From Escherichia coli (GTDB lineage: Bacteria; Pseudomonadota; Gammaproteobacteria; Enterobacterales; Enterobacteriaceae), in assembly GCF_965641715.1 (NCBI RefSeq), contig NZ_OZ282453.1: a stretch of DNA of 64,000 nucleotides. One strand, given 5' to 3'. The notes under the pieces were generated by a model. It did no database searches, was not told where the DNA came from, and saw only the letters and a program-made list of their open reading frames with translations. The position numbers and the translations under genes are program-made. Positions 47,607 to 52,766 of the stretch are shown one piece after another (positions within the stretch are counted from its first letter, which is position 1; the number at the start of each line of letters is the position of its first letter).

Positions 47607-50141
47607 TTAATTACTACCAAACATATCCTTAATCCAACCGGCTACACCGTCGCTATCTTTCTGCTCTTGCTGAGCAGGTTGCTGTTGCGGCTGTTGCTGC
47701 GGCTGTGAAGACTGATCAAACGGGTTGCCTGACGGCTGCTGCTGCATCTCACTCTGCTGGCACAGCGATTGCGGATCGCTGGTCCAGACCGGCAAGACAC
47801 GCATGCCACCGCTGCAAACAAAGTTGCCGTCGTAGTCCACGCCCATATCTGCAATATCTTCTGGCGGAACAAGATTCAGCGGCGTTGGCGTCTGGTTAGC
47901 CAGATAACGCTGATAAATCGACATTGCCCCGCTGGCACCATACAGTTTGGTCGGCTGGTTGTTATCACGGCCTACCCAGGTGATGGTCACCGTGCTGCCG
48001 TCAATGCCCGCAAACCAGGTATCTACGTTATTGTTGGTAGTCCCTGTTTTCCCTGCCAGATGCAGGTTCGGGTATTTCGCCCCAAGCTGACGACCCGTAC
48101 CACGTTGTACCACCTGCTGCATGGTCCATAGTGTCAGATACGCCGCCTGCGCCGGAACAGCGCGTTCCGCCTGCGGGAAGCTCTGATACAGCACTTTGCC
48201 ATCTTCCGCGATTACCGAACGCAGCGCAGAAAGCGGTGCACGGTTACCGCCGCTGGCGATGGTCTGGAATGCCTGCGCCACTTCGATTGGCGTTAAGTTC
48301 AACGCCCCCAGCAGCATCGCCGGAACCGGATGCAGCTGATCTTTCGGCACGCCCAGTTTAATCCAGGTATCCGTAACCGCAGGCAGCCCCAGCGCCATCC
48401 CCAGATTTACCGTCGGCACGTTCATCGAACGGGTCAACGCATCCACCAGCATCACTCTGCCGCTTTCGCTATAACGACGGTCATCGTTCTGCGGTGACCA
48501 GACCTGGCCATTCGGCTGACGTAGCGCGATTGGCGCATCCGCAATCCACGTATTCAGACGATAGATTTTCGGCTGGCTTAAGGCCGTCAGATAAGTCGCT
48601 GGTTTTGCAAGGGAACCAATCGAACGACGCGCCTGCATCGCACGGTTGTAGCCCGCAAACTGCGGCTCAGAACCTCCGACCATCGCACGAACTTCACCAC
48701 TAAAGCGGTCGACGACCACAATCGCGGTTTCCAGATCGCTCAGCTTACGCTGTTTCTTAAGTGCCGGAATGCCTTCCACGGCGGCTTTTTCTGCCGCGTC
48801 CTGGGCCACCGAGTCAAAGGTAGTGAAGATCTTCACGCCGGAGAGATCTTTTACCTTATCGCCTAATTTAGCCTGAAGCTCCTGACGCACCAGTTGCATA
48901 AAGGCTGGCTGAGGAGAGATCACCCCACCGCGCGGCTGAACACCCAGCGGACGCGCACTCAACATGTCATAGAGTTCTTGATCAATAATCTGTTGCTGTT
49001 GCAGCAGACGCAGTACCAGATTACGTCGCTCCAGCGCCAGTTTCGGGTTACGCCACGGGTTGTAGATGGACGCTCCTTTCACCATACCGACTAACAGCGC
49101 CTGTTGATCGAGGCTCAATTCTTCTACCGGGCGACCAAAGTAATACAAGCTCGCCAGCGGGAAGCCGCGGATTTCGTTGTCGCCGCTCTGACCGAGATAC
49201 ACCTCGTTCATATACAGCTCAAGAATACGGTCTTTGCTGTAACGCGCGTCCATGATCAGCGCCATGTAAGCTTCGTTCGCTTTACGCCAGTAAGAGCGCT
49301 CGCTGGAGAGGAACAGGTTTTTCACCAGCTGTTGCGTCAGCGTACTCGCCCCCTGCACCGTGCGTCCGGCTGTCAGGTTTGCCAGCACCGCACGTCCGAT
49401 GGAGTAGAGACTGATTCCATCATGCTCGTAGAAATGGCGGTCTTCTGTCGCCAGCAAAGTATCCACCAGCAAATCCGGGAAACCACTGCGCGGCACAAAC
49501 AAACGCTGCTCACCGTTTGGTGAGGAGATCATGGTGATCAGACGCGGATCAAGACGGAAGAAACCGAACTGACGGTTGTTCTCCATATTGACGATCGTCG
49601 CCAAATGATCGCCATCAAAGGTCAGACGCGCGCGCACCTGTCCTTCTTTACTGTCCGGGAAATCAAACGGACGGCGAATCATCTCAATGCTGTTGGCCTG
49701 CACGGTAAATTCGCCAGGACGGGTCATTTTTGACACCTGACGATACTGGGTTGCCTCCAGCAGCTTCACCATTTCGTTCTTGCTGATGGTCATGTCTGGC
49801 TCAAGGTTGACCATTCGACCATAAACTGCCGCAGGCAGTTGCCAGACCTTGCCATCAATACGGCTACGAATTTTTTGATCGAGATAAACGCCGTAAATGG
49901 CGATCAGCACGGCAAAAACGATAGCCAGTTTTAACAGCAGCCATAGCCAGCCGCGTTTGCCACGAGGCTTACGCCCTTTGCCTTTGCCCTTACCTTTGCG
50001 CGGCATCGGTTCTTCATCCTCATAGTCATCATAATCGTCGTAATCATCGTCATCTTCGTAACGACGACGGCTTACCTTTTGTTTGACCGGACGCGTCGGT
50101 TTCCCTTTGCGTCCAATTGGCTCGCGGTCATTCCCGGCCAT
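47607..50141 (-). CDS. mrcB: Penicillin-binding protein 1B (bifunctional glycosyltransferase/transpeptidase)
   Basis: 844 aa from [15 protein letters not shown]...; acidic [15 protein letters not shown] and (KG)n N-terminal tract, TM helix, SxxK transpeptidase domain. Confidence 0.96.
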
Positions 50142-50235
50142 GCTTTTTCTCCGCAATATTCAGGCGCAAAAGCCCGATTTTCTGTTCTTCTGTTGCAAGA
50201 CAGAAGAAGATATCTCTCAAAATTTGAGCTCGATC

Positions 50236-50330
50236 GGTCCCCTCTCCCTTAAGGGAGAGGGTTAGGGTGAGGGTGAACGTGCGCGCTGATGCCCTCACCC
50301 CGGCCCTCTCCCACAGGGAGAGGGAGAAAA
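50236..50330. repeat. Box C-type compound palindromic intergenic repeat
   Basis: ccctctccc ttaa gggagaggg; gggtgagggtgaa ... gccctcaccc; ccctctccc aca gggagaggg: three nested inverted repeats in 95 bp between the hrpB stop and mrcB start. Confidence 0.7.
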
Positions 50331-50336
50331 CCAACC

Positions 50337-52766
50337 TTACGAATACTTTTTCGTCCGTCGCGTCGGTGCCGTGTTTGCCGGGTCGTCCGGCCAGACGTGT
50401 TTGGGATAACGCCCTTTCATCTCCTTTTGCACCTCACGATACGCCCCTTTCCAGAAGGCCCCCAAATCACGCGTGATTTGCAGCGGCCTTTGGGCAGGGG
50501 AAAGCAACTCCAGCACCAGCGGCACGCGCCCCTGGGCGATCGTCGGATTGGTGGCCTCACCAAACATCTCCTGCATTCTCACCGCCAGCGCGGGCGGGTT
50601 ATCTTCATGATAACGAATGGCGATCCGGCTTCCCGTCGGCACAGTGTAATGCGCAGGCAATTCACTATCCAGACGTTGCTGCATTCCCCAATCAAGTAAT
50701 CCGCGTAGTGCCTGATAAATGTCGAGTGATTTCAGGCCGCGTAGTGAATGTACACCGGCCATATGTGGCAGCAGCCACGTTTCCAGCGTCGCCAACAAAC
50801 TTTCATCATCAACCGCTGGCCAGTCATATTCTGGCAACCACTTTCCGGCGCATAACAAACGCAAGCGTAGCTGTTCCGCTTCCGCCGTCCAGTTGAGCAC
50901 GCTTAAACCTTTATCACGGATGCCGTTAAGCATCGCCTGATGCAACTCGTCTTCTGACGGTTTCGCCAACGGCTGCACTTTCACCGTCAACTGACCGATT
51001 TGCAGCCGACGCCAGGCTTTCAGCGTACCTTGCGCGTCATCCCATTCCACGGTGTCAGATTGCTGCACCAGCTGCGGACAGCGTCGCACTAATTCATCAA
51101 TATCGACCGGTAGCGCCAGTAAAATCCGCGCATCCGGCGAGGCGCTGCCCTGCAATAATAACGGTGCGATCAACCATTCGTGGCGGCTTAGCGCGTCGTC
51201 GGCATCGAGCATCGCTCCCATGCCGTTTGCCAGTTGATAGCGTCCATCTTGCCCACGGCGGCGAGCAATGCGATCGGCAAACGCCCCGGCAAGTAGCGGC
51301 GCGATAAGCGAACTGTCTGCCTCACCGCCGCGTACGTTTAAGCGTTTTAACAGTTGCTGACTACGTTGCTGCCAGGCTGGTTGATTGCGCGAAAACGCCA
51401 CGCCCAGGTCACTATTGCCCATCCGTGGCGGCTCTTCGAGAATGGCGGCAATTTTTGCCGCGGTAGCAGCTTCGTCGTCGCTCTTTGCGCTAACCAGCAT
51501 TGCCGCTAAACGCGGATCGTTACCCAGCGCTGCCATTTTTTGCCCCTGCGCACTAAGCCGTTCACCGTCCAGCGCCCCCAGCATCTTTAACAGGCGTTTC
51601 GCGGCCAGTAAATTCACTGCTGGCGGTTGATCCAGCCAGCTCATCTGCGCCGGATCGCTGCATCCCCATTGCAGTAATTCCATCAACAAACCGGAAAGAT
51701 CGCTTTGTAATATTTCCGGTTCACTTTGCGCCGCGGCGCGTTCTGCTTGTTCCTTGGCGATTAAATGCAGGCAGATACCCGGCTCCAGACGCCCGGCGCG
51801 CCCGGCACGCTGCGTCATCGACGCCTGACTGATTCGCTGAGTAATCAACCGCGTAAGCCCTGTTCGCGGATCAAAACGCGCCACCCTTTCCTGGGCACAA
51901 TCCACCACCAGACGAATACCTTCGATGGTTAAACTGGTTTCAGCAATATTGGTCGCCAGCACCACTTTGCGCATCCCTTGCGGTGCCGGGAGGATCGCTT
52001 TTCGCTGATCGTTCAGCGACAACGCGCCATACAGCGGGCAGAGCAACACATCACTGCCGATGCGCGAAGCCAGTTGTTCCTGCACACGCTGAATTTCTCC
52101 GACGCCAGGTAAAAATAACAGTAATGATCCACTTTCCTGACGCAGCATTTCGGCGGTGGCAACCGCGACGGCTTCGTCAAAACGCTGATGCGCGGGCAGC
52201 GGTAAATAACGGCGTTCAACCGGAAACGAGCGCCCTTCTGAGATGACGACGGGCGCTTCTGGCAGCATTTGCTGCAAGCGGTCGTTATCCAGCGTAGCCG
52301 ACATAATCAGCAGTTTAAGGTCATCACGCAGACCTTGTTGCACATCGAGTAACAGCGCCAACGCCAAATCCGCCTGCAAGCTGCGCTCATGAAATTCATC
52401 AAGGATCACCAGTCCAACACCGCTCAGTTCCGGGTCACGCTGGATCATCCGCGTCAGCACGCCTTCGGTAACCACTTCCAGGCGGGTATTCGGCCCGACG
52501 CAGTTTTGCGCACGCATCCGGTAGCCAACGGTATCGCCTGGCTTTTCGTTAAGCAGCTCCGCCAGCCGTTGCGCGACGTTACGCGCCGCCAGACGCCGTG
52601 GCTCCAGCAGGATAATTTTCCCGTTAATGCCGGGATGCGCCAGCAGTTGCAGCGGCAGCCAGGTTGATTTCCCGGCCCCGGTCGGCGCACTTAATAATAC
52701 CTGCGGCGCACAATCGAGAGCGGTAAGTAATTCAGGTAAGACGGCAGCAACGGGCAACGACGACAC
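50337..52766 (-). CDS. hrpB: ATP-dependent RNA helicase HrpB (DEAH-box)
   Basis: ORF 50337..52811; probable GTG start giving ~809 aa; Walker A APTGAGKST and DEFH motif. Confidence 0.92.
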   Translation of the reverse strand: MSSLPVAAVLPELLTALDCAPQVLLSAPTGAGKSTWLPLQLLAHPGINGKIILLEPRRLAARNVAQRLAELLNEKPGDTVGYRMRAQNCVGPNTRLEVVTEGVLTRMIQRDPELSGVGLVILDEFHERSLQADLALALLLDVQQGLRDDLKLLIMSATLDNDRLQQMLPEAPVVISEGRSFPVERRYLPLPAHQRFDEAVAVATAEMLRQESGSLLLFLPGVGEIQRVQEQLASRIGSDVLLCPLYGALSLNDQRKAILPAPQGMRKVVLATNIAETSLTIEGIRLVVDCAQERVARFDPRTGLTRLITQRISQASMTQRAGRAGRLEPGICLHLIAKEQAERAAAQSEPEILQSDLSGLLMELLQWGCSDPAQMSWLDQPPAVNLLAAKRLLKMLGALDGERLSAQGQKMAALGNDPRLAAMLVSAKSDDEAATAAKIAAILEEPPRMGNSDLGVAFSRNQPAWQQRSQQLLKRLNVRGGEADSSLIAPLLAGAFADRIARRRGQDGRYQLANGMGAMLDADDALSRHEWLIAPLLLQGSASPDARILLALPVDIDELVRRCPQLVQQSDTVEWDDAQGTLKAWRRLQIGQLTVKVQPLAKPSEDELHQAMLNGIRDKGLSVLNWTAEAEQLRLRLLCAGKWLPEYDWPAVDDESLLATLETWLLPHMAGVHSLRGLKSLDIYQALRGLLDWGMQQRLDSELPAHYTVPTGSRIAIRYHEDNPPALAVRMQEMFGEATNPTIAQGRVPLVLELLSPAQRPLQITRDLGAFWKGAYREVQKEMKGRYPKHVWPDDPANTAPTRRTKKYS

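Follow-up and report, generated by a model that had tools for sequence, protein, structure and literature searches.

The codon repeats analysed here, in a 64,000-nt stretch of Escherichia coli DNA (the window, meaning that whole stretch), belong to the 5' coding end of mrcB, a well-studied gene, and encode part of the disordered cytoplasmic tail of PBP1b, whose variation in length between strains is an ordinary, low-rate coding repeat polymorphism in a known gene. Our overall account, which we consider likely to hold, is that of a spacer tail whose coding region also serves to initiate translation of the gamma isoform and occasionally loses repeat units at a low rate.

On the minus strand, positions 47607-50141 of the window correspond to mrcB (ponB), whose open reading frame and translation give the 844-aa alpha isoform of PBP1b. 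RefSeq starts the gene at the ATG of position 50141, from where it reads to 47607; a TTG at 50156 was rejected as the start, being merely the first possible start past a stop. Pfam matches to Transgly (2.7e-56), UB2H (1.7e-25) and Transpeptidase (2.1e-24), with UB2H placed between the transmembrane (TM) helix and the glycosyltransferase, identified the product as a class A PBP, and its residues 1-79 further matched PF14812 PBP1_TM (3.8e-25, over its curated cut-off). The 206-nt mrcB 5' region (49940-50145) agrees at 100% identity with annotated mrcB in most E. coli genomes among the matches listed, and the gene order hrpB-mrcB-fhuA shows that the gene lies at its orthologous position. Comparison with E. 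coli K-12 PBP1b revealed a tail peptide identical to the 1-60 sequence given in PMC13423804, together with the same two start codons (Met1 for alpha, Met46 for gamma), domain set and neighbourhood. The window strain has no tail protein difference from K-12; its mrcB departs from that of K-12 solely through SNPs in other parts of the gene (52 of 2,378 columns).

Based on its translation, the tail is a block polyampholyte, in which a conserved basic N-peptide (residues 1-27, the part published as binding FtsA) is followed by an acidic block (29-44) and by a second basic block, (KG)4-RKPRGKRG, beside the TM helix. Its features, in window coordinates, are as follows.

50100-50141, minus strand: codons 1-14, a conserved N-peptide with reported FtsA binding (translation; function from PMC13423804).
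50061-50111, minus strand: basic segment R11-R27 (translation).
50010-50057, minus strand: acidic D/E/Y tract E29-E44, present in the alpha isoform only (translation; Tandem Repeats Finder, TRF, periods 9 and 18).
50043-50048, minus strand: (GAT)2, codons D32-D33; one GAT is missing in the D4-to-D3 allele (alignments).
50022-50048, minus strand: three imperfect 9-nt DDY units, GATGATTAC GACGATTAT GATGACTAT (sequence).
50037-50045, minus strand: the 9 nt GATTACGAC, missing in strains CFS3292 and E69 (alignments).
50022-50060, minus strand: four-tyrosine span, with Y28 at 50058-50060, Y34 at 50040-50042, Y37 at 50031-50033 and Y40 at 50022-50024.
50017-50021, minus strand: Shine-Dalgarno-like motif GAGGA, codons E41-D42, 10 nt 5' of ATG46.
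50004-50006, minus strand: ATG of Met46, start of the gamma isoform (sequence; two-start architecture from PMC13423804).
49974-49997, minus strand: (KG)4 tract K49-G56, AAA GGT AAG GGC AAA GGC AAA GGG (TRF, sequence).
49977-49988, minus strand: (GGCAAA)2; one unit is missing in the (KG)3 allele (alignments).
49950-49973, minus strand: membrane-proximal basic stretch RKPRGKRG (translation).
49881-49949, minus strand: transmembrane helix (translation; Pfam PBP1_TM).

The codon repeats reported at this end of mrcB in the initial annotation were confirmed by translation of 49992-50069 on the minus strand and by three TRF arrays. The range first given for them, 49990-50070, encloses the acidic tract in full, whereas the KG tract has just its first 8 nt inside and runs 16 nt beyond it; the minus strand of the feature had been left unstated. 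Two of the arrays cover the acidic tract, with periods of 9 (50026-50061, score 44, 77% matches) and 18 (50014-50061, score 54), while the third, with a period of 6, covers the KG tract (49975-49999, score 36). The arrays in the tail hold 2 to ~4 copies with 76-78% matches. The acidic-tract array has the top tandem repeat score of the whole 64 kb, and shuffled windows produced 0-0.05 arrays at a score of at least 54 and 0.2-0.4 at a score of at least 44. Judged from the DNA alone, the KG array is not above chance, as shuffles gave 2.4 arrays per window at a score of at least 36; it is credible because its peptide is periodic and conserved across species. At the protein level, 13 of the 16 residues of E29-E44 are acidic, and this tract is unique among the window's ORFs of at least 100 aa in having at least 9 D/E in 16 residues.

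At the DNA level, these repeats are short and imperfect, comprising (GAT)2, three DDY units that differ synonymously (GATGATTAC/GACGATTAT/GATGACTAT) and (GGCAAA)2. In a rough estimate using standard E. coli codon usage, the DNA identity of the units showed no excess over that implied by the peptide repeat. Given this lack of excess and the synonymous differences between units, the DNA repeat is best viewed as a by-product of the peptide repeat; coding for a periodic peptide generates short imperfect tandem repeats in DNA. Rfam, applied to 49800-50450 with a permissive E-value, returned only sub-threshold hairpin-like matches, all of them in the intergenic palindrome and none overlapping the tract. 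The solved PBP1b structures begin at residue 53-58 and the tail is therefore in none of them; it has been called disordered (PMC13423804).

A census covering 5,424 complete E. coli genomes supported the suggestion that this tail varies in length between strains while remaining in frame. The window's length was found in ~5,096 genomes (~94%), whereas ~328 (6%) have lost, in frame, exactly one unit in one or both tracts. A GAT deletion alone (D4 to D3) occurs in 182 genomes, with alleles within 2 differences of that of EC581, and a GGCAAA deletion alone ((KG)4 to (KG)3) in ~134, a count obtained by subtraction that includes 132 genomes whose allele is at most 2 SNPs away from that of MS8324. Both deletions are combined in 11 genomes, and a whole 9-nt DDY unit is missing in a single one, CFS3292. 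Taken by allele, D3 is present in 3.6% and (KG)3 in 2.7% of complete E. coli genomes, and (DDY)2 in one strain. Deletions of more than one unit were absent from the 5,424 genomes, and an artificially expanded query (+GAT, +9 nt and +GGCAAA) returned best matches that were all of reference length, indicating that this collection contains no expansions. In an alignment of 23 Escherichia mrcB genes, all gap columns fell within the acidic or the KG tract or within a C-terminal Q/P-rich tract. The comparison of mrcB 5' ends between strains that the initial annotation had proposed thus yielded one-unit, in-frame deletions and not complete length conservation, and the indels have the hallmarks of ordinary coding-repeat polymorphism, being whole units that lie inside the repeats and keep the frame.

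Long-read assemblies can miscall short repeats, and the length variants might for that reason be artefacts of sequencing or assembling a repetitive region, a reading to which we attach practically no credence. Every variant is a multiple of 3 with exact repeat units gone, the identical deletions were found in 182, ~134 and 11 complete genomes that are independent and come from different laboratories, and the variants follow clades of the mrcB gene tree. The CFS3292 allele alone is unreplicated within E. coli, yet its deletion is shared by E69.

The repeats had also been described as slippage-prone. This stands insofar as unit losses occur, but the losses are one-unit contractions only, with no expansion and with alleles fixed in lineages, which together indicate a low rate and no hypervariable locus. 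The same observations bear on the reading of the tract as a contingency simple-sequence locus, in which length would change rapidly to provide functional diversity, as in phase or antigenic variation. Such a locus would share with the tail its tandem coding repeats and its in-frame length alleles recurring on several backgrounds; however, each repeat here has 2-3 imperfect copies instead of many perfect ones, and ~94% of genomes have one length where frequent gain and loss would be expected. The changes are one-unit losses with no expansions, and the alleles are fixed over whole lineages, such as the 182 genomes with an EC581-like allele. Moreover, the N-terminal end of PBP1b is cytoplasmic and therefore out of reach of selection by host or phage. 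The few copies, the one dominant length and the absence of gains effectively refute a contingency locus in the PBP1b tail tract, an explanation that we regard as extremely improbable.

The mrcB gene tree further placed the same deletions on several unrelated backgrounds. Within E. coli the KG deletion has at least three of them: a B2 sub-branch separated by 6-8 SNPs from ATCC 25922 (itself (KG)4), LD93-1 at 121-127 differences, and the pair DSM103246/LR71-1. Two divergent 'E. coli' species of GTDB carry it as well. The GAT deletion likewise lies on at least three backgrounds, and CFS3292 shares an identical 9-nt deletion with the divergent E69. Over the 206-nt 5' region CFS3292 resembles the reference, and its FhuA protein accession is that of the K-12-like strain. 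The same unit deletions were seen on mrcB backgrounds 50-127 SNPs apart; the 206-nt region is SNP-poor, and short-patch recombination, instead of repeated slippage, may have brought them onto different backgrounds. In our account, single units would be lost now and then, most likely via replication slippage between direct repeats, although two-copy repeats are poor slippage substrates and the deletions could therefore equally be termed microhomology-mediated. The resulting in-frame alleles would be tolerated because the length of the spacer is constrained only loosely.

Comparison of the tail across 80 Enterobacteriaceae species, with counts that ignore phylogeny, revealed that the N-peptide (codons 1-14) is practically invariant and that a KGKGKG-type tract occurs across the family. 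The acidic tract is 16 residues long in 43 of the 80 species (the mode; range 10-19) and has a charge of -12 to -14 in 62, the N-terminal basic segment has a mean net charge of +8.1 (sd 0.5), and the tail as a whole measures 62-64 residues in 65 species. At least one tract tyrosine is present in all 80 species and at least two in 76. Tyrosine spacing shifts by genus, with a period of 3 in Escherichia and of 4 elsewhere. Acidic-tract and basic-tract lengths are weakly and negatively correlated (rho -0.34; 80 species, phylogeny ignored). Over the same 80 species, the variance in net charge approximates the sum of the component variances; the net charge of the tail is conserved no tighter than its parts, and we therefore see no sign of charge compensation between its blocks. 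Viewed from these sequence comparisons, the total length of the tail appears to be under a visible stabilising constraint.

This constraint bears on whether the two tracts, acidic and KG, simply fill space as neutral low-complexity sequence, in which case any sequence and length would work and indels would be drift. Such a reading accommodates a disordered tract that lies in no solved construct, its variation in sequence and length between genera and the appreciable frequency of one-unit deletions, but we find it improbable. Length and charge are held within narrow limits over the 80 species (mode 16; -12 to -14 in 62; tail of 62-64 in 65), tyrosine is kept in all 80 although Tyr and Asp codons are one base apart, and the 5,424 genomes contained neither an expansion nor a loss exceeding one unit. 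In addition, the GAG codon of the gamma Shine-Dalgarno is conserved in a position-specific manner.

PBP1b is made from two starts, alpha at Met1 and gamma at Met46, and both products are formed in cells (PMC13423804 and its references 37-39). In agreement with this dual-start arrangement, GAGGA at 50017-50021 lies 10 nt before the in-frame ATG at 50004-50006, and the last acidic codons, GAG GAT, would form the Shine-Dalgarno for ATG46. Since GAGGA lies in these codons, the acidic tract is also the putative gamma translation-initiation region. The internal start is an ATG in 62 of the 80 species and a GTG in 7 more, and 61 of the 62 ATG-bearing species have GAGGA no more than 24 nt upstream of it. 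The Glu codon at -5 is GAG in 56 of 60 species (phylogeny ignored), whereas the neighbouring Glu codons are mostly GAA (43:6 at -3 and 45:13 at -2). By these species counts, again ignoring phylogeny, the internal start and its Shine-Dalgarno are conserved beyond what the protein requires, and the end of the acidic tract is synonymously conserved as a predicted gamma Shine-Dalgarno. RNA folding around the gamma start gave no significant structure (z = -0.88). With the predicted gamma Shine-Dalgarno inside the tract, recoding or engineering of the tract is expected to alter isoform ratios.

A run in which 13 of 16 residues are acidic might, alternatively, act on translation itself by causing intrinsic ribosome destabilisation (IRD) on alpha-translating ribosomes, which would lower alpha output and set the alpha:gamma ratio in a Mg2+-sensitive manner, with the bulky tyrosines limiting the effect. 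D/E-rich nascent chains trigger IRD, most strongly before ~30 residues fill the exit tunnel, and bulky residues counteract it (bioRxiv 10.1101/2021.02.02.429294, PMC11162784); the tract starts at residue 29, with the Shine-Dalgarno and ATG directly after it. We nonetheless consider a role in IRD very doubtful. The 28 preceding residues approximate the length at which suppression of IRD plateaus, the bulky tyrosine at every third residue should suppress it further, and the acidic run thus does not have the sequence character of an IRD-causing stretch. Furthermore, mrcB/PBP1b is absent from both IRD papers (bioRxiv 10.1101/2021.02.02.429294, PMC11162784).

The alpha-specific N-terminus brings PBP1b to the division site, probably via FtsA, and only alpha is recruited to midcell in this way (PMC13423804). 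In the spacer account that we prefer, the acidic block would link the FtsA-binding N-peptide to the membrane in the alpha isoform only, as a flexible, negative spacer of loose length. Such a spacer, we infer, would hold the N-peptide off the anionic membrane so that FtsA stays reachable. A similar design is known from FtsZ, whose conserved C-terminal peptide docks on FtsA and is joined by a disordered linker variable in sequence and length. Like that linker, the PBP1b tail ties a short conserved FtsA-docking peptide through a disordered, variable stretch; by contrast, the linker of PBP1b is far shorter and strongly acidic, keeps to a narrow length range, contains periodic tyrosines and doubles as the putative region where translation of a second isoform starts. 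A prediction places the PBP1b N-peptide at the FtsA site that the FtsZ peptide also binds (PMC13423804). Recruitment to the site of division or growth by an extended cytoplasmic N-terminus is also shared with the GpsB-binding tails of Firmicutes class A PBPs (PMC13423804), and mycobacterial PonA1 is reportedly regulated through phosphorylation (PMC4483258); the PBP1b tail has reported phosphotyrosines. The sequences and partners of the Firmicutes and PonA1 tails are unrelated to those of PBP1b, and the modification reported in E. coli is phosphotyrosine.

The function of the acidic tract had initially been called not well defined, which is now only partly true. FtsA-linked recruitment, the predicted gamma Shine-Dalgarno and the reported phosphosites have come into view, while the acidic block itself is undissected in the accessible literature, in which we found no deletion or swap of it. 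Chalut 2001, outside that scope, reportedly made cytoplasmic-domain mutants of PBP1b.

Y28, Y34, Y37 and Y40 have been reported as in vivo phosphotyrosine sites in E. coli (PMC3681748, Tables S1 and S3), one peptide in Table S1 carrying phosphate at its Y3, Y9, Y12 and Y15; the sites come from a single proteomic study, and localisation among four tyrosines of one peptide can be ambiguous. The DDY block might be mainly a module for tyrosine phosphorylation at several sites, through which alpha-PBP1b (its binding to FtsA or its stay at the septum, for instance) is regulated, and not a passive spacer. All four tyrosines being listed as phosphosites (PMC3681748), the presence of tract tyrosine in 80 of 80 species (two or more in 76), the restriction of the block to alpha and the class A PBP precedent of a phosphoregulated PonA1 (PMC4483258) agree with such a module. 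Its basis is one immunoaffinity-MS dataset, however, the tyrosine positions move between genera (period 3 versus 4), a full-text literature search returned no paper connecting PBP1b with tyrosine phosphorylation, and the 2026 alpha-PBP1b recruitment study is silent on phosphorylation of the tail (PMC13423804). On this evidence, we regard a mainly regulatory module as possible, though on the unlikely side. Slightly more tentative still is a specific version, in which the DDY block is a conserved four-tyrosine phosphorylatable cluster in the alpha linker whose state tunes access or binding of the N-peptide to FtsA. If true, a tyrosine kinase would control the fortification of the septal cell wall by PBP1b, and the D3, (DDY)2 and (KG)3 alleles would be natural spacing or charge variants of a tyrosine switch. 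The 2013 phosphosites (PMC3681748) and the 2026 recruitment study (PMC13423804) are thereby joined, as two separate literatures, into a testable regulatory hypothesis.

As a genome feature, this end of mrcB is already known and carries little weight, its polymorphism being as expected for a short repeat in a disordered tail. In common with ordinary coding tandem-repeat polymorphism, the PBP1b indels are unit-sized, preserve the frame and are restricted to low-complexity tracts; the tail departs from it in its very low copy number (2-3), its contractions only and its length constraint. The cross-species evidence for a constraint on tail length and for a gamma Shine-Dalgarno at synonymous sites is of modest value, and the natural alleles D3, (KG)3 and (DDY)2 are tail-length variants that can be tested directly in the alpha-PBP1b/FtsA recruitment model. 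Beyond the tail, the C-terminal Q/P-rich tract of mrcB varies likewise.

The DDY and (KG)n codon repeats described in the initial annotation lie at the 5′ end of an 844-codon minus-strand open reading frame (ATG at 50139-50141, stop at 47607), as revealed by ORF analysis and translation. The encoded protein possesses the complete PBP1b domain set in Pfam (PBP1_TM at residues 1-79, UB2H, Transgly, and Transpeptidase), the surrounding gene order is hrpB-mrcB-fhuA, and the 206-nt mrcB 5′ region displayed 100% identity to annotated mrcB in most of the listed E. coli complete genomes. A start at a TTG codon 15 nt upstream (50142-50156, MRRKSMAGN…), taken from a mechanical ORF list, was rejected, as RefSeq annotations and cross-species conservation favor the ATG at 50141 (MAGNDREP). 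The translated cytoplasmic tail is a block polyampholyte that runs from M1 to residue 28, through an acidic tract (29-44), a proline, M46, a KG tract (49-56), and RKPRGKRG, to the transmembrane helix; solved PBP1b structures start at residue 53-58. The two tracts were located by translation:

50010-50057, minus strand: acidic tract, residues 29-44
49974-49997, minus strand: KG tract, residues 49-56

The repeats had been placed at 49990-50070 with no strand stated; they are indeed found there, but since the KG tract occupies 49974-49997, its last 16 nt fall outside that range. Tandem Repeats Finder reported periods of 9 and 18 across 50014-50061 (scores 44 and 54) and a period-6 array over the KG tract (49975-49999, score 36). 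The acidic-tract array is the top tandem repeat of the entire 64 kb window, and shuffled windows contained only 0-0.05 arrays with a score of at least 54, while on DNA alone the KG array did not exceed the shuffle expectation (2.4 arrays per window at a score of at least 36). No other stretch of 16 residues with at least 9 D/E was found among the window ORFs of at least 100 aa. The underlying DNA repeats consist of (GAT)2, three DDY units with synonymous-site differences, and (GGCAAA)2; they are short, imperfect, and look like a by-product of the periodic peptide.

The 206-nt region was present as a single copy in 5,424 of 5,426 complete E. coli genomes; the remaining two had no mrcB match and three of the 5,424 matches were on records typed as plasmid, possibly reflecting mrcB loss or replicon mis-typing. 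Low-ranking matches spanned 203, 200, or 197 nt, and their alignment revealed in-frame loss of GAT from GATGAT (D4 to D3), of GGCAAA from GGCAAAGGCAAA ((KG)4 to (KG)3), or of both. Each allele was then counted by serving as the query sequence.

Length alleles of the mrcB 5′ region in complete E. coli genomes
Reference length: about 5,096 genomes
GAT deletion only: 182 genomes
GGCAAA deletion only: 132 genomes differing by at most 2 SNPs from the MS8324 allele (subtraction gives about 134)
Both deletions, plus two SNPs: 11 genomes
9-nt deletion GATTACGAC, one DDY unit: 1 genome, strain CFS3292

A synthetic query in which each of the three repeats had one extra unit found its best matches at reference length, with zero expansion alleles. 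The census and this check thus revealed contraction-only variation, in which about 6% of the genomes carry a one-unit loss and no other length change occurs. The predicted in-frame length polymorphism between strains was therefore borne out by unit-sized indels in the proposed comparison of mrcB 5′ ends, here across 5,424 genomes. That the variants are artefacts is contradicted by their replication over hundreds of genomes. Within the 206-nt stretch, indel alleles (about 6%) are approximately as frequent as SNP alleles combined (about 10%, estimated on evenly spaced rows of the match list).

Full mrcB genes were aligned from 17 E. coli strains (the window and 16 others), representatives of four other Escherichia species, and two divergent GTDB 'E. 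coli' species; gap columns were confined to the acidic, KG, and C-terminal Q/P-rich tracts. In a neighbor-joining tree built without these length-variable tracts, the KG deletion was seen in a B2 sub-branch lying 6-8 differences away from ATCC 25922 (itself (KG)4), in LD93-1 (121-127 differences from that sub-branch), and in the DSM103246/LR71-1 pair, as well as in the divergent SCPM-O-B-8794 and E69. The GAT deletion occurred in the PCN033/O139:H1/O158:H23/2012C-4502 group, 06-00048, the DSM103246 pair, and SCPM-O-B-8794. An identical 9-nt deletion was shared by E69 and CFS3292, the latter being reference-like across the 206-nt region and having the same FhuA protein accession as a K-12-like strain. 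This spread over backgrounds fits repeated unit loss, and short-patch recombination may also lie behind the same deletions on different backgrounds. Because all other Escherichia species representatives are D4/(KG)4, the minority alleles are most simply read as derived deletions. Deletion alleles are fixed throughout whole lineages; the indel rate is low.

Across 80 Enterobacteriaceae orthologues (one genome per species), the N-peptide (…RRR) was near-invariant, the acidic block measured 10-19 residues (mode 16, in 43 species), and the basic block 18-28 (mode 18). The two block lengths were negatively correlated (rho -0.34), and total tail length was 62-64 in 65 of the 80 species; special conservation of tail net charge was not found in this set. 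Given this narrow range, the sequences indicate that tail length is changeable yet kept near an optimum, as expected for a functional flexible linker. These conservation data, along with the contraction-only pattern, contradict the notion that the tract is neutral filler and likewise that it is a contingency locus, which it is not. One orthologue (L033) comes from contig CACSKA010000010.1, labeled Chryseobacterium sp. 18061, but its mrcB is enterobacterial and has exactly the tail of Citrobacter sp. 18056 (L034), which belongs to the same project; the assembly is probably mislabeled or contaminated.

The gamma isoform starts at Met46 (PMC13423804). The acidic tract ends in GAG GAT GAA GAA CCG ATG, placing GAGGA 10 nt 5′ of the ATG, and GAGGA was found within 24 nt upstream in 61 of the 62 species having an internal ATG. 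At codon -5, 56 of 60 glutamates were encoded by GAG, while Glu codons at -3 and -2 favored GAA (43:6 and 45:13). Since GAGGA precedes ATG46, is conserved, and is accompanied by this GAG bias, the acidic tract doubles, at its 3′ end, as the gamma translation-initiation region. No significant local mRNA structure was found around the gamma start. In E. coli, both the GAT and the 9-nt deletion fall upstream of the initiation region, and the KG deletion 15-20 nt downstream of the ATG. Seven of 18 species without Met at this position, including Klebsiella and Leclercia, have GTG. Valine GTG replaces ATG46 at orthologue loci L031, L042, L074, L076, L078, and L080 (Klebsiella, Leclercia, Kosakonia cowanii, and relatives), where a gamma-like isoform might initiate; most GTG-bearing species retain the upstream GAGGA. 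At this position Kluyvera, Phytobacter, and Pseudescherichia lack any start codon.

According to Navarro, Vettiger et al. (Nat Microbiol 2026, PMC13423804), enrichment and activity at the division site are limited to alpha-PBP1b, the isoform with the longer N-terminus, and its recruitment probably works through binding of FtsA by the N-peptide (R6 and P8-R11), whose homologues are restricted to Enterobacteriaceae; the words 'acidic', 'tyrosine', and 'linker' are absent from that paper. We propose that the acidic D/E/Y block, found only in the alpha isoform, would act as a disordered spacer of constrained length that separates the FtsA-binding peptide from the basic block near the membrane. It also encodes, as conservation shows, the gamma Shine-Dalgarno. 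Periodic coding creates short repeats that lose a single unit in occasional genomes, presumably by slippage. A phosphotyrosine switch is a speculative but testable alternative: a tract peptide was reported phosphorylated at Y3, Y9, Y12, and Y15 (Hansen et al., PLoS Pathog 2013, PMC3681748), corresponding to PBP1b Y28, Y34, Y37, and Y40, all the tyrosines in or adjoining the acidic tract, and the tract contains at least one Tyr in 80/80 species and at least two in 76/80. No paper connecting PBP1b with tyrosine phosphorylation was found in the literature searched. Also speculative but testable is that the acidic run attenuates translation through ribosome destabilization. Both the gene and this part of it are already known, and the polymorphism is of an ordinary kind; wider interest is limited to the series of natural alleles, the gamma Shine-Dalgarno embedded in the tract, and the unexplored cluster of phosphotyrosines in an isoform-specific linker.

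A second polymorphic coding repeat, CAGCCGCAGCAACAGCCGCAACAGCAACCT, lies in the Q/P-rich tract at the mrcB 3′ end (47685-47700, minus strand, codons about 814-820). Alignment revealed that PCN033 and several Escherichia species have lost 9, 12, or 15 nt in frame here, and about 788 of the 5,424 E. coli genomes belong to identity bands in which the rows listed, BL21 and ST131 strains among them, span 9 nt less; this tract is more polymorphic than the N-terminal ones. Upstream, the hrpB-mrcB intergenic region contains a GC-rich imperfect palindromic element of about 100 nt (about 50225-50338; …CTCCCTCTCCCTGTGGGAGAGGGCCGGGGTGAGGG…CCCTCACCCTAACCCTCTCCCTTAAGGGAGAGGG…), which is present in the window and in K-12-like, O157, LD93-1, and DSM103246 strains (195-nt spacer) and absent from NC101, IAI39, PCN033, and ATCC 25922 (93-nt spacer). 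It matched no Rfam family at threshold. In strains that carry it, the hrpB stop codon is provided by this element (TAA, not TGA), which resembles a small mobile repeat.
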